Shown here: positions 3,341 through 59,993 of the stretch, piece by piece
Layout of the letters: each line of letters opens with the position of its first letter
How positions within the stretch are numbered: position 1 is the stretch's first letter
Assembly (NCBI GenBank): GCA_009780375.1
Contig: WRAD01000001.1
Coordinates: 48,228-112,227, forward strand
DNA from: Bacillota bacterium
GTDB taxonomy: Bacteria > Bacillota > Clostridia > Christensenellales > UBA1242
Direction of reading: 5' to 3'
Length of the DNA stretch: 64,000 bases
Program-made: the position numbers and the translations under genes
The notes under the pieces: generated by a model
Database searches by the model: none
Seen by the model: only the letters and a program-made list of their open reading frames with translations
What the model was told of the DNA's origin: nothing

Positions 3341-3368
3341 AAAACACCCGTAATAAGGTGTTTTTGTT
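3341..3368 (+). terminator. Intrinsic terminator after the LysR gene
   Basis: Stem AACACC/GGTGTT, 8-nt loop, then TTTTTGTTT. Confidence 0.7.
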
Positions 3369-3374
3369 TATAGG

Positions 3375-3416
3375 CTAGGAATTATCGCTTTAAGTCACCG
3401 TTAGGTGCTTTTGTTC
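3375..3416 (+). repeat. Dispersed repeat copy C1 (internally deleted)
   Basis: CTAGGAATTATCGCT is joined directly to TTAAGTCACCGTTAGGTGCTTTTGTTC. It lacks the central T6-GTACTAGGATCTCGGC part of the consensus. Confidence 0.8.
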
Positions 3417-3432
3417 GATCATTAATTCATTT

Positions 3433-5270: not shown

Positions 5271-5314
5271 CAAAAGACATGTCATTTTTGATTCAATTTA
5301 ATTCTCAAACTGGA

Positions 5315-5342
5315 ACAAAAAATTTAGCGATAATTCCTAGAC
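5315..5342 (-). repeat. Dispersed repeat copy C2 (5' half only; the only minus-strand copy)
   Basis: Reverse complement reads GTCTAGGAATTATCGCTAAATTTTTTGT and then continues TCCAG, skipping the remainder of the element. Confidence 0.8.
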
Positions 5343-5345
5343 TGC

Positions 5346-5369
5346 AAAAAAAGGGGCATTTACCCCTTT
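5346..5369 (-). terminator. Intrinsic terminator after CDS 5383..6105
   Basis: Minus strand reads AAAGGGGtaaatgCCCCTTTTTTTGC, with a GGGG/CCCC core and a T7 run. Confidence 0.7.
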
Positions 5370-5382
5370 GAATCGATATTTA

Positions 5383-6105
5383 CTAATAAGTTTCATCTGG
5401 GCGTTCGACCGCAAGTGATTGCACAAAGCGTGCGAGAGGGGCAAAATTAGCAAAGGTACTTAAACTGTAACGAAGTGAATGTGCATCTGCATCACCTGAA
5501 TGACCCAAACTGAAAAGTATTTCTTGTCTTTGAAATCTGTTTCTTTGATTCGCAAGGGGTATATACATTTGACGAATGCCTTGTGCATAGGTCGGGCGAT
5601 GTTGAACAAGCACATCATTTATATCAAGTTCATACCATGTGTAATCCATAGGAACGATTCTGTGGTCGCGACTGCTTGTGCCAAGCAAAGCCCATTGTGG
5701 GGTTGCAAATGAAATCATCATGTAATGCCATCCTGTTGCTGAACGAACTCCGTGTGTATTTTGCATCTGTGTATTGCCATTAAATCCGGCACGCTCTCTT
5801 CCTGACACACCTGTTGTAAATTGTTCTAACATATTGGTTCGACGTCCGCGGTTAAAGTGTCGCATTGCCTCGTTCATTAAAAGTGTTTCGAAATTATTTG
5901 AACTGTCTGGGAAAATAATCTCACGTTCGGTATTTCCCGCACCCCAGCGAAGTTCAATTGCATTTACATGTCTCAAATCAATGTCAAGTCCATAGGTTGT
6001 GCGTATTGATGTAAATAAAATTGCACCTACAGAAGAAAATATAACCAAAACAATAACAAGTCCGATTATTGCATTTCTAAGAATTTTTTTCCTGCGTTGT
6101 GTCAT
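5383..6105 (-). CDS. Hypothetical membrane-anchored (N-terminal TM) protein
   Basis: A GGAGGGA SD lies 4 nt upstream, embedded in the ftsH 3' end. The start overlaps ftsH by 29 nt. N-terminal signal anchor is IIGLVIVLVIFSSVGAILF. Confidence 0.6.
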   Translation of the reverse strand: MTQRRKKILRNAIIGLVIVLVIFSSVGAILFTSIRTTYGLDIDLRHVNAIELRWGAGNTEREIIFPDSSNNFETLLMNEAMRHFNRGRRTNMLEQFTTGVSGRERAGFNGNTQMQNTHGVRSATGWHYMMISFATPQWALLGTSSRDHRIVPMDYTWYELDINDVLVQHRPTYAQGIRQMYIPLANQRNRFQRQEILFSLGHSGDADAHSLRYSLSTFANFAPLARFVQSLAVERPDETY

Positions 6106-24589: not shown

Positions 24590-24598
24590 ATTATACCA
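24590..24598 (-). promoter_or_regulatory. Extended -10 (TGgTATAAT) 6 nt upstream of the rsmD ATG, overlapping the alr start codon
   Basis: Minus strand reads CATGGTATAATctttatATG. The TG comes from the complement of the alr ATG. Confidence 0.5.
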
Positions 24599-25704
24599 TG
24601 GGTAAGAAAAGCAATGACAACATAATATGTGTTAAAATCTCTGCAAAGACAATTCTCGAAAACATAAGAACCTTGAAAAAAAATCTTGAACCAAATGTGC
24701 AAATTTGTGCAGTAATTAAGGCAAACGCATATTCTCTTGGAGATGTAGAAATTGCAAAAATCTTACTTCCGTATGTGTCTTGTTTTGCGGTTGCTCATCT
24801 GGCAGAAGCAAAACGCCTTAGAGATGCAAACATAACCAACCAAATTCTTTTATTAGGTCCGTGCCAAGATTTTAAAAAAGCTCTTGACCTAGATTTAATG
24901 ATTTCAATTAACTCTGTCTCAGAGGCAAAAAACTGTGTTAAAGTAATCAATGAAATTCAAAAACAAAAATTGGAACCCTTGAATGTACATTGGCACATTA
25001 AAGTTAACACAGGTCTAAACCGTTTTGGTATTTCTGAATTAAACGATCTCCAGTCTATTCTTAATGTGGCAATCAAGTGTTCAAGTATAAAACTTGGGGC
25101 ACTATACACACATTTATCATATGACGAACAAAATACAAACGCTGTTAATGAACAACTTGAACGATTTGTTCCATTTAAAACACTCTTCAAACAATATGCA
25201 CAAAATGGAATTATTCATGCTGCCTGCAGCCATACTGCACATTATAACCCTGCACAATTCGATATGGTAAGAATAGGCAAGAGTTTTTACGGCGGATATC
25301 ATGGATACAAAACCGCATTAGATGTAAAAGCCAAAATCACAGCAACGCAAAATATAAAATCGGGCGAAAGGGTAGGATACAACGGAACTTTCCAAGCGAC
25401 CGAAAATATGAAAATCGGTGTAGTTGCTTGTGGATATGCCGATATAATGGATTGCAACTTTGCAAACAAAACATATGTTTATGTGGACGATGTAAAATGT
25501 AAAATAATCGGAAGGATTTGCATGGATGCTTTTATGATTGATGTAACACAGATAAAAAATCCAATGAATAAAATGGCAACAATAATTGCAAATAGGCCGG
25601 GCATAACAATAATGGAATTATGCGAAAAAAGTGATATAATTGCCTGCGACCTGTTTTGTGGCCTTAATTTCGGGCGAGCAAAATTGACATATACAAACAG
25701 GTAA
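24598..25704 (+). CDS. alr: Alanine racemase
   Basis: PLP-lysine region AVIKANAYSLG, about 368 aa, and the C-terminal beta-domain GRICMDAFMIDV. Confidence 0.9.
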   Translation: MGKKSNDNIICVKISAKTILENIRTLKKNLEPNVQICAVIKANAYSLGDVEIAKILLPYVSCFAVAHLAEAKRLRDANITNQILLLGPCQDFKKALDLDLMISINSVSEAKNCVKVINEIQKQKLEPLNVHWHIKVNTGLNRFGISELNDLQSILNVAIKCSSIKLGALYTHLSYDEQNTNAVNEQLERFVPFKTLFKQYAQNGIIHAACSHTAHYNPAQFDMVRIGKSFYGGYHGYKTALDVKAKITATQNIKSGERVGYNGTFQATENMKIGVVACGYADIMDCNFANKTYVYVDDVKCKIIGRICMDAFMIDVTQIKNPMNKMATIIANRPGITIMELCEKSDIIACDLFCGLNFGRAKLTYTNR

Positions 25705-25717
25705 CAGGGCAAGTTTG

Positions 25718-25746
25718 AAAAAAGCACCGTATGCGTGCTTTTGTTC
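25718..25746 (+). repeat. Solo 3' module of the dispersed repeat, acting as the alr terminator
   Basis: Sequence AAAAAAGCACCGTATGCGTGCTTTTGTTC. The 15-mer GCACCGTATGCGTGC is identical to the hairpin of copy C9 (59922-59936). Confidence 0.75.
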
Positions 25747-25748
25747 AA

Positions 25749-25818
25749 GTCTAAGAATTATCGCTAAATTTTTTGTACTAGGATCTCGGCTCTAATGCAC
25801 CTTTAGGTGCTTTTGCTC
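25749..25818 (+). repeat. Dispersed repeat copy C3 (full length)
   Basis: GTCTAAGAATTATCGCTAAATTTTTTGTACTAGGATCTCGGCTCTAATGCACCTTTAGGTGCTTTTGCTC. Confidence 0.9.
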
Positions 25819-25838
25819 AATTGAATTAAATAAAGATT

Positions 25839-33510: not shown

Positions 33511-33630
33511 TAGAGAAATTGTTACATACTCAATTACTTCTTCAAAATTTACAGCTGTGGGGCGTTGGGAGCGTCAAATTAGCACACCAAGTGTCGAGGC
33601 AATTATCTTACTTTGTGAATTTTTTAATAA

Positions 33631-33699
33631 TCTAGGAATTATCGCTAAATTTTTTGTACTAGGATCTCGGCTCTAATGCACCGAAAGGTGCTTTTGTTC
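33631..33699 (+). repeat. Dispersed repeat copy C4 (full length)
   Basis: TCTAGGAATTATCGCTAAATTTTTTGTACTAGGATCTCGGCTCTAATGCACCGAAAGGTGCTTTTGTTC. Confidence 0.9.
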
Positions 33700-33770
33700 T
33701 TGCAGTGCCGATTATTTATTAGGCTTAATTGAAAAGCCGCATAAACATTGGTAATGTTGATGTAAAAACC

Positions 33771-39666: not shown

Positions 39667-41112
39667 TTGAGCAAAAAAGTAATTGCAATTGCAATGGTTG
39701 TCATTCTTCTCGTCGGTGGAGGATTGACCGCATGGTTGGTGACGCGAACACCAAGAAGAGATATCCTTAGAATAGGGAACTGGGGTCATTTTTTGTGTCC
39801 AGATCTTGTGTCTGAATTCCAGGCTCATCATCGACAAGTAACAGGAAACAGAAACTTTCGTGTACGCGTGCAAGAATTTGCTGCAAACCAATCAATGTAT
39901 ACCGCACTTAGGTATAATCGATCTGACCATGATATTATGGCACCATCCGATTATATGATTGAAAGACTTATCTCTCGTAATCTTCTTCAACCACTTGATA
40001 CAAGTCGCCTTTTCTTTTATAACCTTGACAACTATGGAAATCGTATTCCTGTCACAGGTGGAGAATACGGTGAATATGAAAGATTTTACTGGTACGAAAG
40101 CAACTTTGATAATTCGGTACCAAGTTTCTTCAAGGACCAAGTTTTTGCCGCGGCACCGACAAGAACACGAATGGTCGAAGGTGAAACCGTAATAGATCGT
40201 TTTGCAATACCATATTTCTATGGCACAATGGGCGTTATGTATGACCCAACACGAATGGTTTCTGTTGGTGGGGTATCAACCTTTGCAGACACCGATGCCG
40301 CATCCGCATGGATTGAAAATAATGGGTGGGCATCAATATGGGAGGCACAAAACAATGGGATTGTGTCATTCATCAAGCAAAATGCACGTGATACCTATGG
40401 GATTGCTCAACTTATGCTTAATCGGACTGCACTGCTTAATGCCGCAGATGATGAGGCACGTATGGAAATCATCAGACCACTTTTTGCGGATACAAGTTTA
40501 CAACAAATTACCAATGCAGAAAATCTTCTCTTAACACTTCAAGGTTCAACCGTTATCGAATCAAACGACAATGCTCTTACTCATTTCGGTAGTGGTGTAA
40601 ATACTTCAGGGCAACTTGGGCTTGAATGGAACGTATCGGCTGCGTGGGCAATGGCTTCAAACCATAATGTTCGCTATCATGTACCTACCGAGGGAACTAA
40701 CTTGTGGGTAGATTCACTTGTAATCCCAAGAAGGGCAGGAAACGTTGATGCCGCATATGCATTCATTAACTTTATTATGAACCAAGATAACGCACGTCGC
40801 AACGCGGACTTTGTAAAAGGGACAAGTCCAATTGCCGAAGTTGCACAAAATCAGTTTAATGAATTCAGTAACTTTACTCACGCAGATTTTTACAGAGAAG
40901 AGATCATTTTCTTTGACGCACCTGCAAACAATCAAGATTTTATTGATTGGAGAACAAACTTTCTTTACACAATGTTCCCACTTGAAAGTGGTTCAAATGC
41001 ACTTGACCGTGCAGGTATAAAACGCTATCTTGATCGTCATCCAGGGAACACAGATTTTGAAAGAGAAATCGTTCTTATGATGACTGCTGTAATGCTTTAC
41101 ATCGGAAGTTAA
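39667..41112 (+). CDS. potD: Polyamine-type ABC substrate-binding protein PotD-like (enlarged, TM-anchored)
   Basis: TTG start 9 nt after AAGGAGG. N-terminal TM anchor without a lipobox Cys. SBP family-1-like core in the last position of the pot operon. Confidence 0.7.
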   Translation: MSKKVIAIAMVVILLVGGGLTAWLVTRTPRRDILRIGNWGHFLCPDLVSEFQAHHRQVTGNRNFRVRVQEFAANQSMYTALRYNRSDHDIMAPSDYMIERLISRNLLQPLDTSRLFFYNLDNYGNRIPVTGGEYGEYERFYWYESNFDNSVPSFFKDQVFAAAPTRTRMVEGETVIDRFAIPYFYGTMGVMYDPTRMVSVGGVSTFADTDAASAWIENNGWASIWEAQNNGIVSFIKQNARDTYGIAQLMLNRTALLNAADDEARMEIIRPLFADTSLQQITNAENLLLTLQGSTVIESNDNALTHFGSGVNTSGQLGLEWNVSAAWAMASNHNVRYHVPTEGTNLWVDSLVIPRRAGNVDAAYAFINFIMNQDNARRNADFVKGTSPIAEVAQNQFNEFSNFTHADFYREEIIFFDAPANNQDFIDWRTNFLYTMFPLESGSNALDRAGIKRYLDRHPGNTDFEREIVLMMTAVMLYIGS

Positions 41113-41138: not shown

Positions 41139-41168
41139 AAAAAACGCTTATTGGGCGTTTTTTGTTCC
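41139..41168 (+). terminator. Intrinsic terminator after potD
   Basis: AAAAAACGCttattgGGCGTTTTTTGTTCC. Confidence 0.7.
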
Positions 41169-41169
41169 A

Positions 41170-41241
41170 GTCTAGGAATTGTCACTGAGATTTTTTGTAC
41201 TATAATCTCAGCCTTAATGCACCGTATGCGCGCTTTTATTC
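41170..41241 (+). repeat. Dispersed repeat copy C5 (divergent full-length variant)
   Basis: GTCTAGGAATTGTCACTGAGATTTTTTGTACTATAATCTCAGCCTTAATGCACCGTATGCGCGCTTTTATTC. Contains a perfect 8-bp inverted repeat, CTGAGATT/AATCTCAG. Confidence 0.85.
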
Positions 41242-41275
41242 GGTTTGTAAGTTTCTTAATGGGTATAATTGAAAC

Positions 41276-44003: not shown

Positions 44004-44651
44004 ATGACAAAGCAAGAACAAATAAAAAAAATAGGGAAAAATTTAAAGCCCTTTTGGCTGTTTATGCTTGTCTTTACAATTTTATTAACCATTGATCTTG
44101 TAACAAAACACATATTCACCGACTTTGCAAACCGAACATTCATACCAAACTTTATATCAATACACTATGTTCAAAACAGGGGCGTTGCCTTTGGTTGGTT
44201 ATATGGTTCATCTGCACTTATAATATCATTAACATCTGTTATGATTGTTGCAGGTGCAATCTTTTATACAATCTATCGTCATAAAAAACTTGAAATATCA
44301 AATCAAAGCGGTCAATTTGATAAACAAGAAACCTCGGCCAGCCATTCCTGTAACAAGTCAAAAAGACATATGAAAAGATTGTTTGATGTGGCTTTTGCAT
44401 TATTTCTTTCCGGTGCACTTGGCAACCTAATTGACAGAATATTCCTCGGGTACGTCCGAGATTTTATCCGCTTTGATTTTATGAATTTTCCTGTATTCAA
44501 CCTTGCCGATGTATTTATTAATTTGGGTGTTTTGTTACTTGTTATCTATTTCATAATCGAATGGGCACATGAATTAAAAAAAGGACGCACAAAATACGCG
44601 GACAAGAAAAAGGTTTGTGATTCTGTTGTTAAGGAGGGTACAAATGATTGA
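44004..44651 (+). CDS. lspA: Lipoprotein signal peptidase II (with a ~35-aa charged insertion)
   Basis: NRGVAFG and GALGNLIDR...VRDFI...FNLAD catalytic-Asp motifs. Confidence 0.85.
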   Translation: MTKQEQIKKIGKNLKPFWLFMLVFTILLTIDLVTKHIFTDFANRTFIPNFISIHYVQNRGVAFGWLYGSSALIISLTSVMIVAGAIFYTIYRHKKLEISNQSGQFDKQETSASHSCNKSKRHMKRLFDVAFALFLSGALGNLIDRIFLGYVRDFIRFDFMNFPVFNLADVFINLGVLLLVIYFIIEWAHELKKGRTKYADKKKVCDSVVKEGTND

Positions 44652-45627
44652 AGAAAATCCTAATCTTATCAAAGTTAAAAAAGGCGGAACGCGTCTTGAT
44701 ACATATTTAAAAAATCACTTTGGCGATAAACACACCCGAAGTCAAATCACAAACAGTATCAATAACGGACATACAACACTTAACGGACAAAAGGTTAAAA
44801 ACGGGAAAATAGTTGAACGTGGTGACATGATTCTTGCCCAAATTGAAAATTTTGATACACCTGCAATCGCCGAAAACATTCCGCTTGACATAATCTACGA
44901 AGATTCGCATCTTCTTGTTATAAACAAACCTAAAGGCATGATCATTCATCCTGGGGCAGGTGTTCATGGTGGAACACTTCTTAATGCACTATTACATTAT
45001 TTTGAAATTCCTTTTGTCACAGAACCTGATACAAATTATCCCACGCCTGAGACAAATAATATATCAAATCAAACAGTTGAACATTCGAAGACATTAGTCA
45101 GAGCCGGAATTGTTCATCGACTTGACAAAAATACATCTGGGCTTATGATTGTTGCAAAAACCGCTCAAACACAAGCCAAATTATCAAAAATGTTTGAAAC
45201 ACATGAGATAAAGCGTACGTATGTCGGGCTTGTCGAGGGGAGTTTGCAAGGCCAAGGTACAATAAAAAAAAACATCATCCGCGATCCAAATAATCGCACT
45301 CGCTATAAAACAGATCCTACAAAAGGCCGCCATGCCATTACTCATTACATTGCCTTATCTCACTATCGCTATGGTAACCGTCCGCTAAGCCTTGTCCAAT
45401 TTAATCTTGAAACCGGTCGTACGCATCAAATACGCGTTCATATGAAATCACTTAATCATCCACTTGTTGGTGATATTGAATACAACCATAGCTCCACTCT
45501 AAAAATAGAAGGACAACTTCTGGAATCGGTTGAACTCTCATTTATTCATCCAATTACAACCAAGCAAATGGAATTCAAAATTCAACCGCAAATGCAATCA
45601 ATAATTGCTAAACTTGCAAAAATTTAA
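44644..45627 (+). CDS. rluD: RluA-family 23S rRNA pseudouridine synthase (RluD-like)
   Basis: N-terminal S4 domain, HRLDKNTSGLMIVAK catalytic motif, GRTHQIRVH. AAGGAGGG SD upstream. Confidence 0.85.
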   Translation: MIEENPNLIKVKKGGTRLDTYLKNHFGDKHTRSQITNSINNGHTTLNGQKVKNGKIVERGDMILAQIENFDTPAIAENIPLDIIYEDSHLLVINKPKGMIIHPGAGVHGGTLLNALLHYFEIPFVTEPDTNYPTPETNNISNQTVEHSKTLVRAGIVHRLDKNTSGLMIVAKTAQTQAKLSKMFETHEIKRTYVGLVEGSLQGQGTIKKNIIRDPNNRTRYKTDPTKGRHAITHYIALSHYRYGNRPLSLVQFNLETGRTHQIRVHMKSLNHPLVGDIEYNHSSTLKIEGQLLESVELSFIHPITTKQMEFKIQPQMQSIIAKLAKI

Positions 45628-45640
45628 CGCTATGAACAAC

Positions 45641-45671
45641 AAAAAACGGTGAACCAGTCACCGCTTTTTTT
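45641..45671 (+). terminator. Intrinsic terminator after rluD
   Basis: AAAAAACGGTGAaccagTCACCGCTTTTTTT. Confidence 0.75.
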
Positions 45672-45718
45672 CTTGTACTAGGATCTCGGCTGAAGCGCAC
45701 CTTTAGGTACTTTTGTTC
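45665..45718 (+). repeat. Dispersed repeat copy C6 (3' half, joined to the rluD terminator T-run)
   Basis: TTTTTTTCTTGTACTAGGATCTCGGCTGAAGCGCACCTTTAGGTACTTTTGTTC. The 5' CTAGGAATTATCGCTAAA part is absent. Confidence 0.85.
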
Positions 45719-46200
45719 TACTTTTGTTTGAAGAACTGTGCCATCAATAGTGTCGCATTATCTTCATTCAATGATTCCAAAAGCTTGACCGTTTGTCGCA
45801 CAAACATAAATACATCAAGTTTACAGGAATTTACAAAGTTGTACAATGCCGCTGTCTCATCGCAGGTTGTTGCTGAGTGGACGTGATGTGAATTTATATA
45901 CTTGGTGAACCAATCAATATGCGAAGGGCCTAGTGCCGCTTTAAGCAACACACAAAGGTTCTCATCCACAAAAGCTTGGTTCTCTTGAAGCATTTGTTCG
46001 ACATATTCTTTTGAACCACGCATGAGTATACTCCTGTGGGGAAGATTTTTGTAAACATCTGAAAGTGTTGTCGGGATTGACACAAAAACTTCTTTATCCA
46101 GATTGTTGACAAGTTCGTACATACAGGACACGTCTGCGTCAGGCATAAGCATAAGCCATTCTTGCTTACACACAAATTGAACCATTTCTAGATTCGTCAT
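45718..46200 (-). CDS. Hypothetical protein
   Basis: 160 aa from MTNLEMV. The longer track ORF would run through the rimM promoter and start. Its TAG stop abuts the end of repeat C6. Confidence 0.45.
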   Translation of the reverse strand: MTNLEMVQFVCKQEWLMLMPDADVSCMYELVNNLDKEVFVSIPTTLSDVYKNLPHRSILMRGSKEYVEQMLQENQAFVDENLCVLLKAALGPSHIDWFTKYINSHHVHSATTCDETAALYNFVNSCKLDVFMFVRQTVKLLESLNEDNATLLMAQFFKQK

Positions 46201-46302
46201 AATTCTCAAATCCTTTCTGTTTTCTCTCCATTTGAGAGTAAAAATAATAATGATTTTGGAACTTCTCAAGTATAACATACCCCTCATATCAAAGTCAATA
46301 TG

Positions 46303-46311
46303 TGATATACT
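46303..46311 (+). promoter_or_regulatory. Extended -10 (TGaTATACT) 7 nt upstream of the rimM ATG
   Basis: Sequence TGTGATATACTattaaacATG. Confidence 0.55.
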
Positions 46312-46318
46312 ATTAAAC

Positions 46319-46798
46319 ATGAAAAACAAATTTTTAATCGGCAAAATACTTAAACCCCGAGGCCTTAAAGGTGAACTTAAAATTCAAATTCTGACAAATG
46401 TGCTTGATGTTTTTACTAGCCTTAAAAAGGTCTATATAGGTAACAATGATCAAGCCGATTCATACACAGTGGTAAAGAGTTCCATCCAAAACGAATTCGC
46501 ATATATTTCTATCAAAGATGTAACCACAGTTGAGCGTGCCGAAGATTTTCGCGACATGCAAATCTTTGTAAATAAGAATCAACTTGAAATCGCCGATGAT
46601 GAAATAATCGCCGATGATATTTTGGGGTTTGAAATTATAAACCAAAAAGGTGTAAAACTCGGAGTCTTAAAATCTATTGAAAACTATGGTGGGTCGGACT
46701 TTTTAAATTTGGGTAATGAACTTGAAATTCCTTATGAAGAGGAATTCATAATTGAAACAAATATGACCGACAAAAAGATACTTGTTAAATGGGGGTAG
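46319..46798 (+). CDS. rimM: 16S rRNA processing protein RimM
   Basis: The N-terminus MKNKFLIGKILKPRGLKGELKI is the canonical RimM start. Located upstream of trmD. Confidence 0.85.
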   Translation: MKNKFLIGKILKPRGLKGELKIQILTNVLDVFTSLKKVYIGNNDQADSYTVVKSSIQNEFAYISIKDVTTVERAEDFRDMQIFVNKNQLEIADDEIIADDILGFEIINQKGVKLGVLKSIENYGGSDFLNLGNELEIPYEEEFIIETNMTDKKILVKWG

Positions 46799-46799
46799 C

Positions 46800-47441
46800 A
46801 TGAAAATCCAAATATTAACACTGTTCCCACAAATGTTTTCCGCACTTGAACACAGTATTATTAAACGTGCAAAAGACAAAGGGCTTGTCGAAATTGAATA
46901 CATAGATTTTCGCAATTATTCCAAAGACAAACATAAAAAAGTCGATGATTATGCGTTCGGCGGTGGGGCAGGGCTTGTATTAATGGCTCAACCAATCATA
47001 GACTGTATAGAAACAATAGACCCATTGCACCTTGCCCATCGAATATATTTGACCCCGTCCGCCAAAAATTTGACCCATAAAAAAGCGGTAGAGTTATCCA
47101 AACACAAAAATTTAATATTATTATGTGGTCACTATGAAGGCATAGACCAACGCATTATAGATCTTGTAATTGATGAAACAATAAGTATAGGCGAATATGT
47201 ATTAACAGGCGGTGAAATCCCTGCAATGGTTATTGTCGATGCGGTTGTACGTCATATTAAGGGGGTAATTTCCGTCGGGAGTCTTCAAAATGAAAGTCAC
47301 ACCACACAGGGGCAATGGGAATATCCACAATATACGCGTCCTCAAACAATTCGCAATCTTGATGTGCCACCGGTACTTTTATCTGGAAACCATGCGGAAA
47401 TCGAAAAGTGGAAAAAGGAAAATTCTGTAAAATTCAAGTAA
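46800..47441 (+). CDS. trmD: tRNA (guanine37-N1)-methyltransferase TrmD
   Basis: MKIQILTLFPQMF, DDYAFGGGAGLVL, CGHYEGIDQR and LTGGEIPAMV. Confidence 0.93.
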   Translation: MKIQILTLFPQMFSALEHSIIKRAKDKGLVEIEYIDFRNYSKDKHKKVDDYAFGGGAGLVLMAQPIIDCIETIDPLHLAHRIYLTPSAKNLTHKKAVELSKHKNLILLCGHYEGIDQRIIDLVIDETISIGEYVLTGGEIPAMVIVDAVVRHIKGVISVGSLQNESHTTQGQWEYPQYTRPQTIRNLDVPPVLLSGNHAEIEKWKKENSVKFK

Positions 47442-47496
47442 CATTTTAACTTTGATTCTTCCATTATAAGTGTTACAATTATAATAACGGGGGACA

Positions 47497-47931
47497 GTGA
47501 AAAAACAAAAAAAACCATTATTGTCGAACAAGTGGATTTTAATCTTAAAGGTGGCTTCTGCATGTGTGTTGCTTTTTATTTCTGCATTTTTCTTTTTTCA
47601 AAATCTGAATATATTCTGGTCCGATCTGCGAACCGCCAATCCGCCTTTATTTTTTATTCCTGTGCTTTTTGTAATTTGCGTAATCCTTGTTTGTGCCTAC
47701 ATTATATTTTTGCTATTCAAGGTTGACGATGGCAAAGTTTATCGTGCCGATCGCTTTGACATAATCTATAAAATTATTTACAGTTTTATTGTATTGCTTA
47801 TCTCTGTGCGAAGCTTCTTTGTCGAGCCGTACCTCGAGGCACCAATAGTCATTGTAGTAATAAGTTTAATTTTCGGTGTTGCAAATTGGATGATACCGAA
47901 CCTTTATTATCACGATAGTGAAGATTTCTAA
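47497..47931 (+). CDS. Hypothetical 4-TM membrane protein
   Basis: GTG start with a GGGGGA SD, and four hydrophobic segments. Confidence 0.5.
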   Translation: MKKQKKPLLSNKWILILKVASACVLLFISAFFFFQNLNIFWSDLRTANPPLFFIPVLFVICVILVCAYIIFLLFKVDDGKVYRADRFDIIYKIIYSFIVLLISVRSFFVEPYLEAPIVIVVISLIFGVANWMIPNLYYHDSEDF

Positions 47932-47933
47932 TG

Positions 47934-48013
47934 CTCTAGGAATTATCGCTAAATTTTTTTGTACTAGAATCTCAGCTTAATGAACTTAATGCACCATAAG
48001 TTGCCTTTGTTTG
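47934..48013 (+). repeat. Dispersed repeat copy C7 (full length with a small internal duplication)
   Basis: CTCTAGGAATTATCGCTAAATTTTTTTGTACTAGAATCTCAGCTTAATGAACTTAATGCACCATAAGTTGCCTTTGTTTGC. Confidence 0.85.
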
Positions 48014-48835
48014 CTATATGCCCGTATCTTCAATTTCTGAAAAACTTCCACCGATAAATTTTGCCGTCTTTCCAGTATTGTCAAGTTCACCATCATTATC
48101 ATTAATTATTGGCATCCTTGCAACACTGTTTCTTCTCAGGGTTTGTTTAAAAAATCGTTCTAAACTTGTGTGATATTTATCCTTGTGCGTGAGATTAAAT
48201 TCCGCAATTTGTTGAAGCTTCGCACTTCGTACATCACCTGTATCAATACTTGTCTGGATTAATGCCTCAACATCACCTTCGGTATAAACAAGTGCCGCCG
48301 CGGTATTTAATTGGCTTTGCTTGTAGAGCGGCATTAAAACATCAAACAAATTTGCATCATCAAGGCCACTTCCGATAACAATGAGGGTACAATGGGAAAA
48401 AGAAACAGTCCGTCCCATGTTAACCCCAATATCGGCCAGTGCTTCGGTAATATCTGTGCCACGCCCAACTGCAATATGTCTTTCTGGTATGCCAAAAGGG
48501 TCAAAATTAAATAAAACATGTTCACCGTAAACAATAATTTCATCGTCTTCCATGTCAATCGCTATTGCGGTTAATATTGTTCTTGTCAACGCCATCGATT
48601 GTTTTGACACAGCCATAGGTAATAATGCAACAAGCATAGCCAATATAATAAGCAAAAACTTTTTCTGCCATATCGTAATAAAAATTTTTACAAACACATT
48701 TTGTTTTTGTTCTAGCCTAGGAATTATCGTTAAATTTTTTGTACTAGGATCTCGACTGGAGCGCACCGTATGGTGCTTTTGTTCTTTTTTTTTCTTGCTT
48801 TCATCGACTTCTTTATTGGTTGTTCTATCTTTCAT
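48014..48835 (-). CDS. GerAC/Ger(x)C-like germination protein, apparently truncated and with a repeat-derived N-terminal extension
   Basis: The core (LTAIAIDMEDDEIIVYGEHV..., GRTVSFSHCTLIVIGSGL) resembles the N-terminal half of Ger(x)C. ATGA overlap with the upstream gerAB-like gene. Residues ~18-41 are translated from repeat C8. No lipobox Cys. Confidence 0.5.
   Translation of the reverse strand: MKDRTTNKEVDESKKKKEQKHHTVRSSRDPSTKNLTIIPRLEQKQNVFVKIFITIWQKKFLLIILAMLVALLPMAVSKQSMALTRTILTAIAIDMEDDEIIVYGEHVLFNFDPFGIPERHIAVGRGTDITEALADIGVNMGRTVSFSHCTLIVIGSGLDDANLFDVLMPLYKQSQLNTAAALVYTEGDVEALIQTSIDTGDVRSAKLQQIAEFNLTHKDKYHTSLERFFKQTLRRNSVARMPIINDNDGELDNTGKTAKFIGGSFSEIEDTGI
48716..48785 (+). repeat. 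Dispersed repeat copy C8 (full length, antisense inside the gerAB/gerAC junction)
   Basis: CCTAGGAATTATCGTTAAATTTTTTGTACTAGGATCTCGACTGGAGCGCACCGTATGGTGCTTTTGTTC, preceded by TTTTGTTCTAG. Confidence 0.9.
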
Positions 48836-50016
48836 ATTCTTGCCTCCTTTGTTGCAGAGTCACTTTTTTGTTTCTTGTCTTTTTTACCAGAATTTCTTTT
48901 TTTCAAAATCAATGCGTTAATTAAACACACAACAGGCACCGTAAAGAACAAAATCGCAATCGCAGGGGCGACAATAACAATGAAATCATTCAATCTGTCA
49001 GGTGTTTTTACAAGCAACCACCACATTAGATATAAAAACAATGCAACAGAAAACCCAATGTAACCGGCCCTATGTTTGACGTTAAAAATATATCTTAAAC
49101 ATGCAAACACCGCAAAAAACGTTGCCCCAAATCTTAATAATAATAACATTGACCAAATGCAAACCAAAATCCAATCAAGACGCCCACTCTGTGTCAAGAA
49201 TTCTGAATAGGTTGTCAAGTTTGTAATTGCCAAATCTTTTGTAGGTCCAAGTGGTCCAAAAATGCTTGTAAACATAAACACAAAAAATACAAAGAAAGCC
49301 CCAACAAGTCCGGCCACAAGCATAAATTTTGTTATGAATTCTTTTGGATTTTTAAAAGGTATTGGTTGATTTTCACCTTGTGCCTTTGCCGGGCATCCTT
49401 GTTGGATGTCACCAGAAAAAATCAACAAAAAAGCCGCACTTTCAAAGTAAATAAGATTATGATAAAAACCACGTAAAATCGGCATAAAACCGCCACTGAA
49501 CAACGGTGTAATCTCACCCGGATTCATACTTCTTAATGCAGGGAACACCGATAGTGCAATGCCAATAATAATCAACAGGTAAAAAATTTCACCACTACGG
49601 AAAAAAGCCCTTGCAGGTAAAAAGCAAAATGCTGCACCAAAAATAACAAGTGGTATTAAAAATTTGTGGATATTTAATTCGGTAAAAAGATTTTGACCTA
49701 ATATAATGTAACTTTGACTTGCCAAAATAAATAATTGTAAAAGTAAAAGACCAAGCATCAAAAGAACAACAAGTTTTGCCCCCACAAACTTTGTATTAGA
49801 TCGCAAATCGCTGTATATATCACTTCCTGCCCCAATTACAAGTACATTAAGAACCGCAAAAATTACAAGCAACTCGAACACCGTTCCAATCAACGCAATT
49901 ACCCATGCATTGCGAACGCTCTCGCCCGATAATATTGCTGGAAGTGCCAAAAATTTTATTGCAAACGAATATATACAATAAAATATAATCAACTGTCTTG
50001 TGGAAATTTTTTTCAC
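48832..50016 (-). CDS. Spore germination GerAB/GerKB-type permease (APC-like)
   Basis: The N-terminus MKKISTRQLIIF... is typical of Spore_permease proteins (IS.RQL). About 10 TM segments. GTG start. Confidence 0.7.
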   Translation of the reverse strand: MKKISTRQLIIFYCIYSFAIKFLALPAILSGESVRNAWVIALIGTVFELLVIFAVLNVLVIGAGSDIYSDLRSNTKFVGAKLVVLLMLGLLLLQLFILASQSYIILGQNLFTELNIHKFLIPLVIFGAAFCFLPARAFFRSGEIFYLLIIIGIALSVFPALRSMNPGEITPLFSGGFMPILRGFYHNLIYFESAAFLLIFSGDIQQGCPAKAQGENQPIPFKNPKEFITKFMLVAGLVGAFFVFFVFMFTSIFGPLGPTKDLAITNLTTYSEFLTQSGRLDWILVCIWSMLLLLRFGATFFAVFACLRYIFNVKHRAGYIGFSVALFLYLMWWLLVKTPDRLNDFIVIVAPAIAILFFTVPVVCLINALILKKRNSGKKDKKQKSDSATKEARI

Positions 50017-50045
50017 ATCTTTAATCTTTGCAAATAATGAAGGTA

Positions 50046-50219
50046 CTATTCAGTACCAAATTGACTAAGGTCTTCATCATGTGCAACATAGTCAAAAATA
50101 AGGCGTACCAATTTTTTAAGAAATTCCTTATCTCTGTTAATATGTTGTATAAGTGCGTCCATTTTGTCACTTACAATCTTTTCCTTGTCTTCAAAAATTT
50201 TGCCTTGGGTATCTATCAT
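50046..50219 (-). CDS. Small hypothetical protein (57 aa), divergent from the XRE gene
   Basis: AGGAGG SD 9 nt upstream of the ATG (MIDTQGK...). Predicted helical and acidic. Confidence 0.5.
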   Translation of the reverse strand: MIDTQGKIFEDKEKIVSDKMDALIQHINRDKEFLKKLVRLIFDYVAHDEDLSQFGTE

Positions 50220-50241
50220 GTTTAAAAACCTCCTATTTTCA

Positions 50242-50289
50242 CCAATATGGCACAAGTATAAATTATTTTGTTCCAATATGCAACAATAT
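50242..50289. promoter_or_regulatory. Operator-like direct repeats in the divergent promoter region
   Basis: CCAATATG occurs at 50242-50249 and 50273-50280, and CAATAT again at 50284-50289. Confidence 0.35.
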
Positions 50290-50294
50290 TTTAT

Positions 50295-50498
50295 ATGAGT
50301 TTAGCAAAAAATATTAAAACATTACGTAAAGAGAAAGGACTTACTCAAGAGGCATTGGCAAAAGATTTAGATATAGGTCGTGGAGCACTTGCACATTATG
50401 AAGCAGGGGACAGACAAGTGCCTAGTTATCTTGTACCAAAAATCGCAAAATACTTTAATGTGTCAATAGATTATTTATATGGAGAAAGAGAAGAATAA
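50295..50498 (+). CDS. XRE-family helix-turn-helix transcriptional regulator
   Basis: IKTLRKEKGLTQEALAKDLDIGRGALAHYEAGDRQVP is a canonical Cro/C1 HTH. 67 aa from MSLAKN. Confidence 0.85.
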   Translation: MSLAKNIKTLRKEKGLTQEALAKDLDIGRGALAHYEAGDRQVPSYLVPKIAKYFNVSIDYLYGEREE

Positions 50499-50547
50499 TT
50501 TTTTCAATATCATATGTAGGGGCAAACTTGCGATTCGTTCAAAAAAA

Positions 50548-50592
50548 TTGACAAACTTTGTAATTGTCAAAAATCAAAAAACATCGTAATAT
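50548..50592 (+). promoter_or_regulatory. Inverted repeat TTGACAA-N9-TTGTCAA overlapping the promoter TTGTCA-17-TAATAT of CDS 50599
   Basis: Perfect 7-bp arms at 50548-54 and 50564-70. The -10 TAATAT at 50587-92 lies 6 nt before the ATG. Confidence 0.5.
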
Positions 50593-50598
50593 TAAACT

Positions 50599-51030
50599 AT
50601 GTTAAAAAAACTTTTTGCAAAAAAATCAAAAACAAAAGGATATCCACGAGGATATACGCCAACTTCTGCCGATTTGGCTGTAGATAATTTTGTTGCAAAC
50701 ACACTTAAACAAAAACAGGAACTTAATTATACGCAAAGTGACTATGAAAAACTTGTTGGTAAAAAACTTCAAATATTCAATTGCACAAATGGGGAAGACA
50801 TAACCTATAAACTTGAATCGGTTGCTCATCTGGAAAATTCAACTTTTGGTGACACATTTTATTTACTTGCTAACGCCCCTGACAAAACACAAATTGTATT
50901 TCATCCGCGTTACCAAGATGAATCGTTTTGTTTTATTACTGCGGTGAACGGGAAAACTCTTGACGGGTATTTATCATTGTCTGATCACGAAATTTGTGCT
51001 GAACTTTTGCCTAAAATTACAAAGTCATAA
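50599..51030 (+). CDS. Hypothetical protein
   Basis: 143-aa ORF in the leaderless promoter context. No motif recognised. Confidence 0.5.
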   Translation: MLKKLFAKKSKTKGYPRGYTPTSADLAVDNFVANTLKQKQELNYTQSDYEKLVGKKLQIFNCTNGEDITYKLESVAHLENSTFGDTFYLLANAPDKTQIVFHPRYQDESFCFITAVNGKTLDGYLSLSDHEICAELLPKITKS

Positions 51031-51121: not shown

Positions 51122-51149
51122 TTGACATAATTCGATTTTTGGCTATAAT
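51122..51149 (+). promoter_or_regulatory. Promoter TTGACA-16-TATAAT, with the ATG 7 nt after the -10
   Basis: TTGACA at 51122-27, TATAAT at 51144-49, ATG at 51157. Confidence 0.6.
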
Positions 51150-51156
51150 GGAAGAT

Positions 51157-52884
51157 ATGAAAAGACGCATCTTAACCATAGTCGGTATTGCAATTGTTGT
51201 ATTTGCAGGTGGACTTACCGCTATTTTGATAAACGCGATGGCAACAACAATTAGGCTCTCTCCTGTAGGAAGTATCTACAGTGTCTCTGGCAATGGTGGG
51301 AATGCCGTTTCCGTCGGCGGTTACTTGTATTTTATTGGTAACTTTCACTCAAGGTACGATATAAACAGGCGTCCAAATAACATTTATGGTAATCCAGGCA
51401 CAGGGCATCGATTGACAAATGGTGCGATTTGGCGTATTCGTTTAAACGAAGAGGGGCTTCCACAATATGACAACAGTTGGATTGACGGATGGCAAGATGA
51501 ATGGAATGCAGGGCACCCTGATTTTATAGGCGGTCCAAATTCATCAGAAATTGATGATTTAAGACAGGACAATGAACATATAGAAACACAGATTGACTCG
51601 CGATTTGTTCCAGGTACCCTTGAACTTGTTGTGCCAAAGGTCGCAGGTCACGAACAAAGTTCGTTATTTATTATGGGCAATCATCTCATTTACACAAGTC
51701 CACACAACTATTATGGAAGAGGTCATGATGATTTACAAATCGACCGAACAGATTTTTTCAGGGTAGATTTAACAGGTGCAAATAACAGGCTTTTGTATAC
51801 AACAAGGTCAAGGGCTCATCAGGTAACACGCAATGACTTCACCGTCGCATGGGTAGATGGACAAAGTCATCTTTTAATTCGTGAACCTGTTGGGGATGGA
51901 CTCAGCCGAATCACACACGTTAATGTATCCACCGCAAGGGTACAAACACTTACAACCGAGGCGGCAACATGGGCATTCCCAGAGGTGACAACCTTCATAA
52001 GAACCACCTCAGGTGGAACCCACTTAAAAGGCTTTGGGGGCATAATGTCATTCGTGTATTGGACCGAGGCTCGTCCTGAATCCGATCCAACAAATGGTGA
52101 CCTTGTATTCCGTCACCACTTGGGGTCAAGAAACGCAACACGTAACCTTATGGCAGACGACCATAACACAAGATTTCAACTTGTATCGCTAAGCGGTGGA
52201 CGCCTTATTTGGAGAAGAGGCAATTTTAATACTCCACACAATTGGTCACTTCGCATAACAGAAAGTACCGATCAGGGTGTTTTTGCATCAGGTGCAATAA
52301 ACGCAGAAACTCGCCAAGTATGGGAAGCCGACATGGTGTCAATGTCAACAAGTGATTCCGAATTTAATACAATCGTTGCACCAACAGAAAACGCAGGATT
52401 TGTATTCAGTTTCTTTACGCTGTTCGGTCCTTCTGGTAACCAAAGTATTTGGAGATGGACATTAAGCGATGGACAATTTTCCGAGACGGTGATTCCTGGA
52501 ACGCAAGGTGTTGAAGAAATTGTAAAGGTTGCATCAAGTCGCCTGTTCTTTATGCGTGGCGGACAACTTCATTCAATTAATTTTGACGGTACAATTGCAA
52601 GACCACCTGTCACAATTTCTCCTGACCGTGAGACACGAATAAATATCTCTATCTTCACCCCAATCGCAAGTGATGGGTTCAGGGTAAATAACGCACATGA
52701 CTTTATCTCATATATCCGCACAATTCACTCAATTGTTGATGACGACATGGTTATCGATGATGAAACTGGCGAATCTCCAATCCCAACAGGTAATTCAATA
52801 ACAATTGCAGTGATTGTTGATCGTCAAAACAACGCTCATCGTCTTTGGAATCTTGAAAATGAATTCGTAGGAATTCCATCTTAA
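51157..52884 (+). CDS. Membrane-anchored beta-propeller-like protein (DUF5050/TolB-like repeats)
   Basis: N-terminus MKRRILTIVGIAIVVFAGG anchor, with recurring YF/LY..G..L..I..DG-type blades (YLYFIGN, LIYTSPHN, FFRVDLTGANNRLLYT, LFFMRGGQLHSINFDGT). Family call is by resemblance only. Confidence 0.55.
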   Translation: MKRRILTIVGIAIVVFAGGLTAILINAMATTIRLSPVGSIYSVSGNGGNAVSVGGYLYFIGNFHSRYDINRRPNNIYGNPGTGHRLTNGAIWRIRLNEEGLPQYDNSWIDGWQDEWNAGHPDFIGGPNSSEIDDLRQDNEHIETQIDSRFVPGTLELVVPKVAGHEQSSLFIMGNHLIYTSPHNYYGRGHDDLQIDRTDFFRVDLTGANNRLLYTTRSRAHQVTRNDFTVAWVDGQSHLLIREPVGDGLSRITHVNVSTARVQTLTTEAATWAFPEVTTFIRTTSGGTHLKGFGGIMSFVYWTEARPESDPTNGDLVFRHHLGSRNATRNLMADDHNTRFQLVSLSGGRLIWRRGNFNTPHNWSLRITESTDQGVFASGAINAETRQVWEADMVSMSTSDSEFNTIVAPTENAGFVFSFFTLFGPSGNQSIWRWTLSDGQFSETVIPGTQGVEEIVKVASSRLFFMRGGQLHSINFDGTIARPPVTISPDRETRINISIFTPIASDGFRVNNAHDFISYIRTIHSIVDDDMVIDDETGESPIPTGNSITIAVIVDRQNNAHRLWNLENEFVGIPS

Positions 52885-59360: not shown

Positions 59361-59867
59361 TTATTTCATTTTATAATCAATCACTCTTTCTAAATGATTT
59401 GCTGTTTCATTAACAAGAATATAAGAAAGTGCAAATTTTTCGTATGCTTCTTGTCTTTTTGTCATATTTGGGTTTAAAGGCGGTTGTCTTTTAAGTGCAC
59501 GCGAGTAATCCACACTGCGAGGAACTTCGCCTATTTCTTTGTAGAGTGAATGCACAACCCAATTACGAAGTTGCCTCACATAATCAATTCTATCAAGTTC
59601 TGCAATAGTTAAAAAAATTCTTTTTCCACGTGCAATTTCATCCCTCATTCTTTCCACCAAATTCGACCAACCACGTTTGTCATCAATCTGCAGACTATCA
59701 ACTTCGGTTGCCAAAAATACAAGTTGTCCCTCAATTTGTTGTTGCCCTTTGATAATACTTTCAACCCACATTGTTTGCCAAAAATCAGATTTACTTCCTT
59801 CAAGTAATCCACGTGCACGTTCTTTATATTGTCTGATGATATCGTCCATAAGCAAAGTGTACCACAT
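59361..59867 (-). CDS. Hypothetical all-helical protein with a HEPN-like RNxxxH motif
   Basis: LRNWVVHSLY at residues 100-109 resembles the HEPN/DUF86 RNxxxH..Y motif. Start set at MWYTLL, because the track's N-terminal extension is translated from repeat C9. Confidence 0.45.
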   Translation of the reverse strand: MWYTLLMDDIIRQYKERARGLLEGSKSDFWQTMWVESIIKGQQQIEGQLVFLATEVDSLQIDDKRGWSNLVERMRDEIARGKRIFLTIAELDRIDYVRQLRNWVVHSLYKEIGEVPRSVDYSRALKRQPPLNPNMTKRQEAYEKFALSYILVNETANHLERVIDYKMK

Positions 59868-59875
59868 ATTTTCTG

Positions 59876-59946
59876 CTCTAGGAACTATCGCTTCAATCAT
59901 TTGCAGGATATCGGCTGAAACGCACCGTATGCGTGCCTTTGTTCTA
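59876..59946 (+). repeat. Dispersed repeat copy C9 (divergent middle)
   Basis: CTCTAGGAACTATCGCTTCAATCATTTGCAGGATATCGGCTGAAACGCACCGTATGCGTGCCTTTGTTCTA. Confidence 0.8.
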
Positions 59947-59993
59947 CGAAAACACGAATAGTGTGTTTGGTGATAATTGCACATAATTAAGTT

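Follow-up and report, generated by a model that had tools for sequence, protein, structure and literature searches.

A naturally short gerAC-like gene in a Clostridia contig and the two small repeat copies that probably inserted at its ends

The DNA analyzed in this study is a 64,000-nucleotide (nt) stretch, hereafter the window, from a Bacillota bacterium of the class Clostridia (assembly GCA_009780375.1, contig WRAD01000001.1, positions 48,228 to 112,227); it contains a gerAC-like gene with a copy of a short repeat at either end. The gene lies behind a gerAB-like permease gene and faces a convergent membrane-protein gene. The two repeat copies, named C7 and C8, were detected with an nhmmer profile built from six copies in the window. 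The features of the locus, numbered from the first letter of the window, are:

47497..47931, + strand: convergent membrane-protein gene, 144 residues, full length; it adjoins gerAC in orthologous loci too
47932..48013, + strand: repeat copy C7 (nhmmer E 1e-19, 47925-48015), which fills the whole spacer between the TAA at 47929-31 and the gerAC stop at 48014-16
48014..48835, - strand: gerAC-like gene, 273 residues, known from the list of open reading frames (ORFs), Pfam, an alignment and an AlphaFold model
48705..48712, + strand: octamer TTTTGTTC at the left junction of C8, the same as the 3' end of the element; it reads GAACAAAA on the gene strand and lies in the Lys/Glu/Gln-rich tail
48713..48784, + strand: repeat copy C8 (nhmmer E 1e-22, 48706-48786), 72 nt, antisense to gerAC and encoding residues 18-41
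48832..50016, - strand: gerAB-like permease gene, 394 residues (Pfam Spore_permease, E 3.6e-11)
48843..48850, - strand: Shine-Dalgarno sequence AAAGGAGG, 7 nt 5' of the ATG at 48835

The original prediction, made from the sequence alone, had described two same-orientation copies around the gerAC-like ORF and a frame of 273 residues coupled to gerAB, and both descriptions hold: the copies are recovered at the E-values listed, and the stop codon TGA of the gerAB-like gene overlaps the ATG at 48835 as ATGA. Our reading of the locus is that the gerAC-like gene is very probably an intact member of a naturally short GerAC-like clade, and that two repeat copies of about 72 nt inserted at T-rich sites at its ends.

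From N- to C-terminus, the protein consists of a disordered Lys-rich tail, a transmembrane (TM) helix (about residues 47-76) and a complete GerAC N-domain. Its sole Pfam match is Spore_GerAC_N (PF25198; E 2.8e-17, residues 85-244, profile positions 8-174 of 176); the same search gave no match to the Spore_GerAC C-domain (PF05504) in the 273-residue ORF. A weak profile match to the GerBC chain 3n54_B was also found (E 0.004). When aligned with 16 short homologues, the window protein keeps all of the invariant columns (36/36), and the invariant anchor residues W56, K59, F60 and P73 are present, the anchor pattern of the clade being W-x-KKF...LP(M)A. The AlphaFold model, based on the homologue alignment, has a mean predicted local distance difference test (pLDDT) score of 82; residues 85-270, the last three strands included, mostly score above 90, and residues 1-45 score below 50. 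The lipobox cysteine, to which the original prediction had drawn attention, is absent from the protein (which reads ...LVALLPMAVSKQS), and it is likewise absent from 16/16 homologues and from the two-domain relatives P0023, P0024, P0028 and P0041.

A search of 5.8 billion proteins revealed one public protein, P0001, that is identical to the 273-residue model and belongs to a Firmicutes metagenome-assembled genome. The 16 homologues from this search share 43-71% identity, are 214-261 residues long and have PF25198 as their sole domain. Every one of them ends, without a repeat, at the alignment position where the window protein ends, give or take a few residues; homologue C-termini read ...ATFINGIKS, ...VTFVGGILVP and ...KAKFANGIFVEKI before the stop, and that of the window protein reads ...TAKFIGGSFSEIEDTGI. 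Among 1.84 billion cluster representatives, the best profile matches are 207-284 residues long and the next ones 339-384 residues. Longer relatives carry PF25198 together with PF05504 in all five cases tested (P0023, P0024, P0027, P0028 and P0041) and fall outside the short clade. Since the best profile matches are all short and the longer, two-domain relatives come next, the C-domain was lost clade-wide, in an ancestor of the short clade. The window protein fits the short clade (P0002-P0022: about 207-284 residues, PF25198 only, same end point); without its 24 inserted residues it would be 249 residues long.

At the gene's 3' end, the locus of the closest homologue (L064), which is free of the repeat, serves for comparison: there gerAC terminates at 764-766 and the convergent gene at 763-765, the two stops overlapping within TTTAAA. 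In the window, the same two stops are parted by 82 nt made up of C7. Because the stops overlap in L064, C7 is interpreted as an insertion between two stop codons. The product of the membrane-protein gene is 61% identical to the L001 protein and 65% identical to the L064 protein, all of them ending at residues DF. C7 seems to have altered neither the gerAC nor the membrane-protein product. The gerAC gene of L001 has its own ordinary terminator at the 3' end, without a repeat. An extra ORF of 83 residues (L001:3007-3258, - strand) lies between gerAC and the membrane-protein gene in L001; it is absent from the window and from L064, so that sequence has been gained and lost before at this intergenic spot.

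C7 itself is placed directly after GATTTCTAA and is degenerate, with a mismatched hairpin and no stable fold (z +1.7); it is 78% identical to C8 and has an internal insertion of 8 nt. The gerAC stop had been thought to be built in part from the terminal C of the element. This could not be upheld: in the alignment with 25 other copies, the homology of C7 ends at 48012 (TTTGTTT against the consensus TTTTGTTC), so that G48013 and the stop complement CTA (48014-16) are flank sequence and the stop only adjoins C7.

At the 5' end, C8 supplies residues 18-41 (EQKHHTVRSSRDPSTKNLTIIPRL) through its antisense strand, and exactly these 72 nt (24 codons) are absent from the orthologous loci L001, L002 and L064. 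In these loci, AAAGGAGG (AAAAGGAG in L064) stands 6-7 nt before an ATG that overlaps or adjoins the gerAB stop, and a short Lys-rich tail leads into the conserved FVKFF/IWQKKF segment. When the 72 nt are taken out, the tail of the window protein reads ...ESKKKKEQKQNVFVKIF, which matches MNKEKKQNAFVKFF in L064. The read-through proposed for the 5' end is thus supported, C8 being antisense and open in frame, and the orthologues having the same ribosome-binding site, ATG and coupling without the 24 residues. The comparison with orthologues, by which the original prediction was to stand or fall, therefore divided it: repeat-free relatives share the short length and the 3' end of the window gene, against the claimed truncation, and lack part of its N-terminus.

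C8 has its hairpin, GCACCGTATGGTGC, followed by TTTTGTTC, intact on the + strand, and the unit 48713-48784 sits between TTTTGTTC octamers at 48705-12 and 48777-84. The left-junction octamer (48705-48712) is either a T-rich target or a duplication. A terminator-like prediction at C8 was obtained for the + strand only, with nothing on the gene strand. A scan of 47300-50600 listed no sigma-70-like promoter sites within C7 or C8. The reconstructed + strand target, CATTTTGTTTTTGTTC|TTTTTTTTTC, is a long T-run arising from AAA/GAA/CAA codons, a type of site that the repeat family prefers. Each strand of the consensus element offers a single open frame. For C8 it is the antisense one that is read, and only 8/26 copies are open in this phase. 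The residues encoded by C8 lie N-terminal of the TM helix, in a stretch whose pLDDT is below 50.

From these observations, the following course of events may be proposed. C8 would have inserted into the Lys-rich N-terminal tail, whose AAA-rich codons give a T-run on the opposite strand. The gene would have survived by virtue of the 72-nt length of the insert, the one open antisense frame in which C8 is read, and the position of the U-tract on the non-coding strand, where it would not act as a terminator for the gerAB-gerAC transcript. The outcome would be 24 extra residues in a disordered cytoplasmic tail. At the other end, C7 would have inserted between the abutting stop codons of gerAC and the convergent membrane-protein gene. 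We infer that C8 is a tolerated insertion that is probably translated from a start at 48835. Were translation from 48835 of no importance, a 72-nt length combined with an open phase would have a chance of roughly 3-5%.

The repeat family comprises six full and three partial copies in the window, plus one solo 3' module at 25721-25748, giving a density of about 0.14 per kb, or about one copy per 7 kb. The copies other than C7 and C8 are:

3368..3420, + strand: internally deleted, behind a native terminator
5310..5350, - strand: 3'-truncated, behind the native terminator of gene 5383-6105 (- strand); the sole - strand copy in the window
25741..25822, + strand: downstream of gene 24598-25704 (+ strand), with the solo module (hairpin plus TTTTGTTC) at 25721-25748 before it
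33621..33703, + strand: in a divergent intergenic region
41161..41245, + strand: directly behind the native terminator of gene 39667-41112 (+ strand)
45662..45721, + strand: 5'-truncated, fused to the T-run of the native terminator AAAAAACGGTGAACCAGTCACCGCTTTTTTT of gene 44617-45627 (+ strand); the joined stretch is 45650-45721
59867..59948, + strand: TTCAATCATT subfamily; ORF 59361-59984 (- strand) reads through it at its 5' end

An exact-pattern scan found 16 further loci in JGI metagenome contigs, on which nhmmer detected about 36 copies; these are related contigs of the termite-gut type. In the GTDB species representatives, among which the host genome is not included, the pattern scan gave 42 matches, each of them single and in unrelated taxa, as chance alone would produce. 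The unit, about 72 nt in length, is composed of a conserved, unstructured 5' module of 44 nt ((T)CTAGGAATTATCGCTAAATTTTTTGTACTAGGATCTCGGCT), a variable linker, a 5-bp GCACC/GGTGC hairpin and TTTTGTTC. The hairpin with TTTTGTTC is present in 24 of the 26 aligned copies and was scored as terminator-like. Two subfamilies differ at positions 14-24, where one has TAAATTTTTT and the other TTCAATCATT.

RNAalifold on 26 copies gave no conserved structure (two pairs only); the 5-bp hairpin was seen by eye and in single-sequence folds, and such folds of the short form are no better than those of shuffled sequence. At gathering thresholds Rfam matched nothing in the window, and permissive thresholds gave only noise for a short copy and the long form. 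The element has no terminal inverted repeats; its 5' end CTAGGAATT and 3' end TTTTGTTC are not complementary, and no long stem is predicted. In most copies the flanks are not duplicated; C8 has TTTTGTTC on both sides, but the right octamer belongs to every copy. IS200/IS605-derived and REP/RAYT-type elements have subterminal hairpins at both ends and an associated Y1 HUH transposase; in the short form of the repeat a single conserved hairpin is seen, at the 3' end. A long form of about 128 nt shares the 5' end (TCTAGGAATTAT) and the 3' half and has an internal module of about 57 nt with the hairpin GGTTCGCTTGAGCGAACT. Compared with shuffled sequence, the long form folds better (z about -2.6); it is found neither in Rfam nor in the window, and may be the parent of the 72-nt form. 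Its copies are:

L054:495-625, - strand
L057:8275-8405, - strand
L060:10520-10650, - strand
L061:10455-10580, + strand
L062:1640-1745, + strand

The copies sit at characteristic places. Of 29 distinct left junctions, 25 are T-rich (7 or more T among the 14 nt that precede CTAGG), and many of these T-runs belong to sequence-unique, genuine-looking intrinsic terminators of upstream genes, as at 41161, 3368, 45662 and 5350 (- strand) in the window and in L050, L051, L055, L058 and L060. The left junction is a fixed 3-6 nt past the T-run. The copies point the same way as the upstream gene, at 1-50 nt from gene ends, and often fill convergent spacers or touch a stop codon. Tandem dimers and 1.4-mers, their period about 72 nt, have TTTTGTTC in common at the junction, the hairpin and TTTTGTTC being the end of the element itself; this pattern fits an element that inserts behind terminator-like ends, its own included. 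The tandem copies are:

L049:2671-2787
L051:2622-2774
L053:8885-9035
L056:1686-1840
Window 25721-25822 (partial)

In the related contigs there are several convergent ORFs whose final codons and stop come from the antisense strand of a copy, a C-terminal extension that is the reverse of the truncation proposed for gerAC:

L061:4378-6012, + strand, with a copy at 5969-6049 (- strand); the same as L057:12848-13873, - strand
L051:2520-3269, - strand
L059:6547-7248, - strand

Several points weigh against the reading of C7 and C8 as insertions at the ends of an intact, translated gene. The closest repeat-free loci are only about 70% identical, so that the empty-site comparison is one between species; within a species, no case of presence/absence polymorphism was observed, and none of the repeat-bearing metagenome loci overlaps the window. 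Neither terminal inverted repeats nor a clear target-site duplication nor an associated transposase was found, the window and the loci not having been screened for transposase genes. The C-terminus of the window protein is 4-7 residues longer than those of its three closest relatives, and a small effect of C7 on the last codons is possible. Lastly, judging from the N-terminus of more distant homologues, translation could begin at the in-frame GTG at 48697.

The repeat may, alternatively, be a functional module of the host, such as a spare terminator or a protein- or RNA-binding element of the 3' untranslated region, which would then be regulatory at gerAC and not selfish DNA. The terminator-like 3' hairpin and T-run, the co-orientation of copies with the upstream gene near gene 3' ends, and the 44 nt of the 5' module, conserved in sequence yet unstructured, are all in keeping with this explanation, and co-option of the pneumococcal SPRITE repeats as terminators has likewise been suggested (PMC3049150). 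However, many copies stand behind a native terminator that is entirely sound; copies in tandem, truncated copies and copies with internal deletions are common; C8 is antisense within a coding region, the hairpin of C7 has decayed, and no Rfam family matches. We therefore regard a host function as unlikely on the whole, while giving it real weight. A bolder idea, which we consider decidedly speculative and improbable as it stands, is that the repeat is a terminator-seeking mobile element of an undescribed mechanistic type, with its orientation strictly set by the target and its 5' junction a fixed few bases behind the U-tract, for which antisense runs of poly-lysine codons, as in gerAC, would act as decoys. 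The 5' junction would lie roughly where terminated transcripts would end, and the placement pattern would fit movement by hairpin recognition or via an RNA template.

A second explanation concerns the start of the gene. If the true start were the GTG at 48697 (MFVKIFITIWQKKF...), C8 would be untranslated and would lie in the gerAB-gerAC spacer, and the 273-residue ORF would be an accidental upstream extension. Most of the more distant family members begin exactly there (e.g., MFKLIWQKKF), and chance alone leaves about 30% of copies open in this phase. A second ORF of the window (59361-59984, - strand) is likewise extended through a repeat copy, probably artefactually: its residues ~13-39 (RRTKARIRCVSADILQMIEAIVPRAEN) come from copy 59867-59948, and an internal Met (MWYTLLMDD...) just past the copy is probably the start, which would place that copy in a divergent intergenic region. 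On the other hand, the GTG at 48697 has no Shine-Dalgarno sequence before it, whereas the ATG at 48835 has AAAGGAGG 7 nt ahead of it; in each of the three closest orthologues, an ATG with a ribosome-binding site next to gerAB is used and the tail is Lys-rich; and the exact 72 nt with an open phase would be the rare coincidence estimated above. A start at the GTG is thus rather doubtful, and the ATG at 48835 is preferred.

The original prediction had favored a truncation, in which the insertion of C7 cut the 3' half off a once full-length gerAC of about 370-400 residues and left a truncated gene or pseudogene. C7 does adjoin the gerAC stop codon, and the PF05504 domain, present in canonical GerAC and in the nearest two-domain relatives, is indeed absent from the ORF. 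Nevertheless, homologues from other genomes (16/16) are equally short and end at the same point without a repeat, the next gene downstream is a conserved syntenic neighbor whose stop abuts or overlaps that of gerAC in L064, and the C-terminal strands are confidently packed in the AlphaFold model. A remnant of the 3' half, for which the original prediction had proposed to look in another frame or place, was not found in any of the six frames of the 64-kb window with a profile of the C-domains of the relatives (best E 2.2). This truncation is very improbable, and the gene is taken as a complete member of its short clade. The idea that C7, C8 and the roughly 700 bp between them form a composite mobile unit carrying gerAC is less credible still: apart from the two same-orientation copies at that distance, it has against it that the copies are non-coding, 72-80 nt long and lack a transposase or inverted ends, that repeat-free loci have the ancestral, syntenic order of gerAB, gerAC and membrane-protein gene, that the family is scattered singly and two copies within 1 kb are unsurprising at its density, and that C8 lies inside the gene, so that the unit would carry the gene without its start.

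Some further features of the window were noted. A small, divergent helix-turn-helix gene (50268-50498) is not conserved with the corresponding L002 neighbor, and two ORFs just beyond the gerAB side, one of 143 residues (50599-51030, + strand) and one of 581 residues (51139-52884, + strand), have no Pfam match at E <=0.01. An ORF of 208 residues (45718-46344, - strand) starts beside the truncated copy at 45662-45721, overlaps the + strand gene 46232-46798 and looks spurious. Two adjacent + strand ORFs (6-1109 and 1127-2320) contain a 78-nt direct repeat with 81% identity (618-695 and 1925-2002) and a second repeat pair (946-977 and 2199-2230); they are probably tandem paralogous genes. GC skew gave no clear replication direction in the window by which a strand bias could be tested.

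For annotation, these results mean that a short gerAC-like gene of this kind should not be called a pseudogene or fragment, and that the public 273-residue model (P0001) includes 24 repeat-derived residues. A pair of a GerAB-like permease and an N-domain-only GerAC-like protein recurs in at least five genomes (L001-L005). It is conceivable, though speculative, that GerAB and an N-domain-only, non-lipoprotein GerAC with no adjacent GerAA form a distinct two-part receptor or transporter. C8 is a further example of a small interspersed repeat absorbed in frame into a tolerant protein tail, and the habit of the family of sitting behind intrinsic terminators and T-runs could help in the study of how such elements choose their targets. 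Views of spore germination receptors and of mobile DNA are left as they stand.

Like canonical Ger(x)C proteins (GerAC and GerBC of B. subtilis; PDB 3N54), the window protein has Spore_GerAC_N and is encoded beside a GerAB-type Spore_permease gene. Unlike them, and throughout its clade, it has no PF05504, no lipobox cysteine but an uncleaved TM anchor, and no adjacent GerAA, the canonical proteins being encoded in tricistronic operons with GerAA and GerAB; no GerA-family neighbor is adjacent in the window or in L001-L005. The window gene thus fails three of the four defining features of canonical Ger(x)C.

As for the repeat, insertion in a fixed orientation and immediately downstream of intrinsic-terminator stem-loops is characteristic of class C bacterial group II introns; they are structured ribozymes of at least 600 nt, usually with a reverse-transcriptase ORF. 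The window element resembles them in its fixed-orientation placement behind terminators and differs in its type, which is 72-128 nt long and without intron-like structure. Identity as one of the miniature inverted-repeat transposable elements was ruled out, there being no inverted ends and no clear target duplication.

Repeats fused in frame to genes are well documented, for example the Rickettsia palindromic elements (RPEs; Ogata et al. 2000, reviewed in PMC3184786) and the QMITEs of Coxiella (PMC5896051). As in these cases, a short repeat lies here inside a coding gene, leaves the frame intact and lengthens the protein by a peptide where such an addition is tolerated. RPEs and QMITEs, unlike the window element, are palindromic with inverted terminal repeats; moreover, a single intragenic copy is seen here, in an N-terminal tail, whereas QMITEs that hit functional genes do so at the 3' end.

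The SPRITE repeats of pneumococci are terminator-like, lie near gene 3' ends, are enriched between convergent genes and have no known transposase (PMC3049150). The window element is similarly a non-coding, AT-rich Firmicute repeat of about 100 nt or less with a stem-loop and a T-rich tract; it too occurs near gene 3' ends and between convergent genes, with no convincing inverted ends, target duplication or transposase. It differs in its stem (5 bp, against 18 bp in SPRITE), in its conserved unstructured 5' module of 44 nt, in the left junction fixed a few bases past a T-run or native terminator, in tandem dimers that share TTTTGTTC, and in its far higher density (about 0.14 per kb in the window, against 30 copies in the ATCC 700669 genome); the two are likened by description. 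In its behavior the repeat is closest to SPRITE and belongs with the small interspersed terminator-like repeats, and its least ordinary aspect is its precise placement behind terminators and T-runs.

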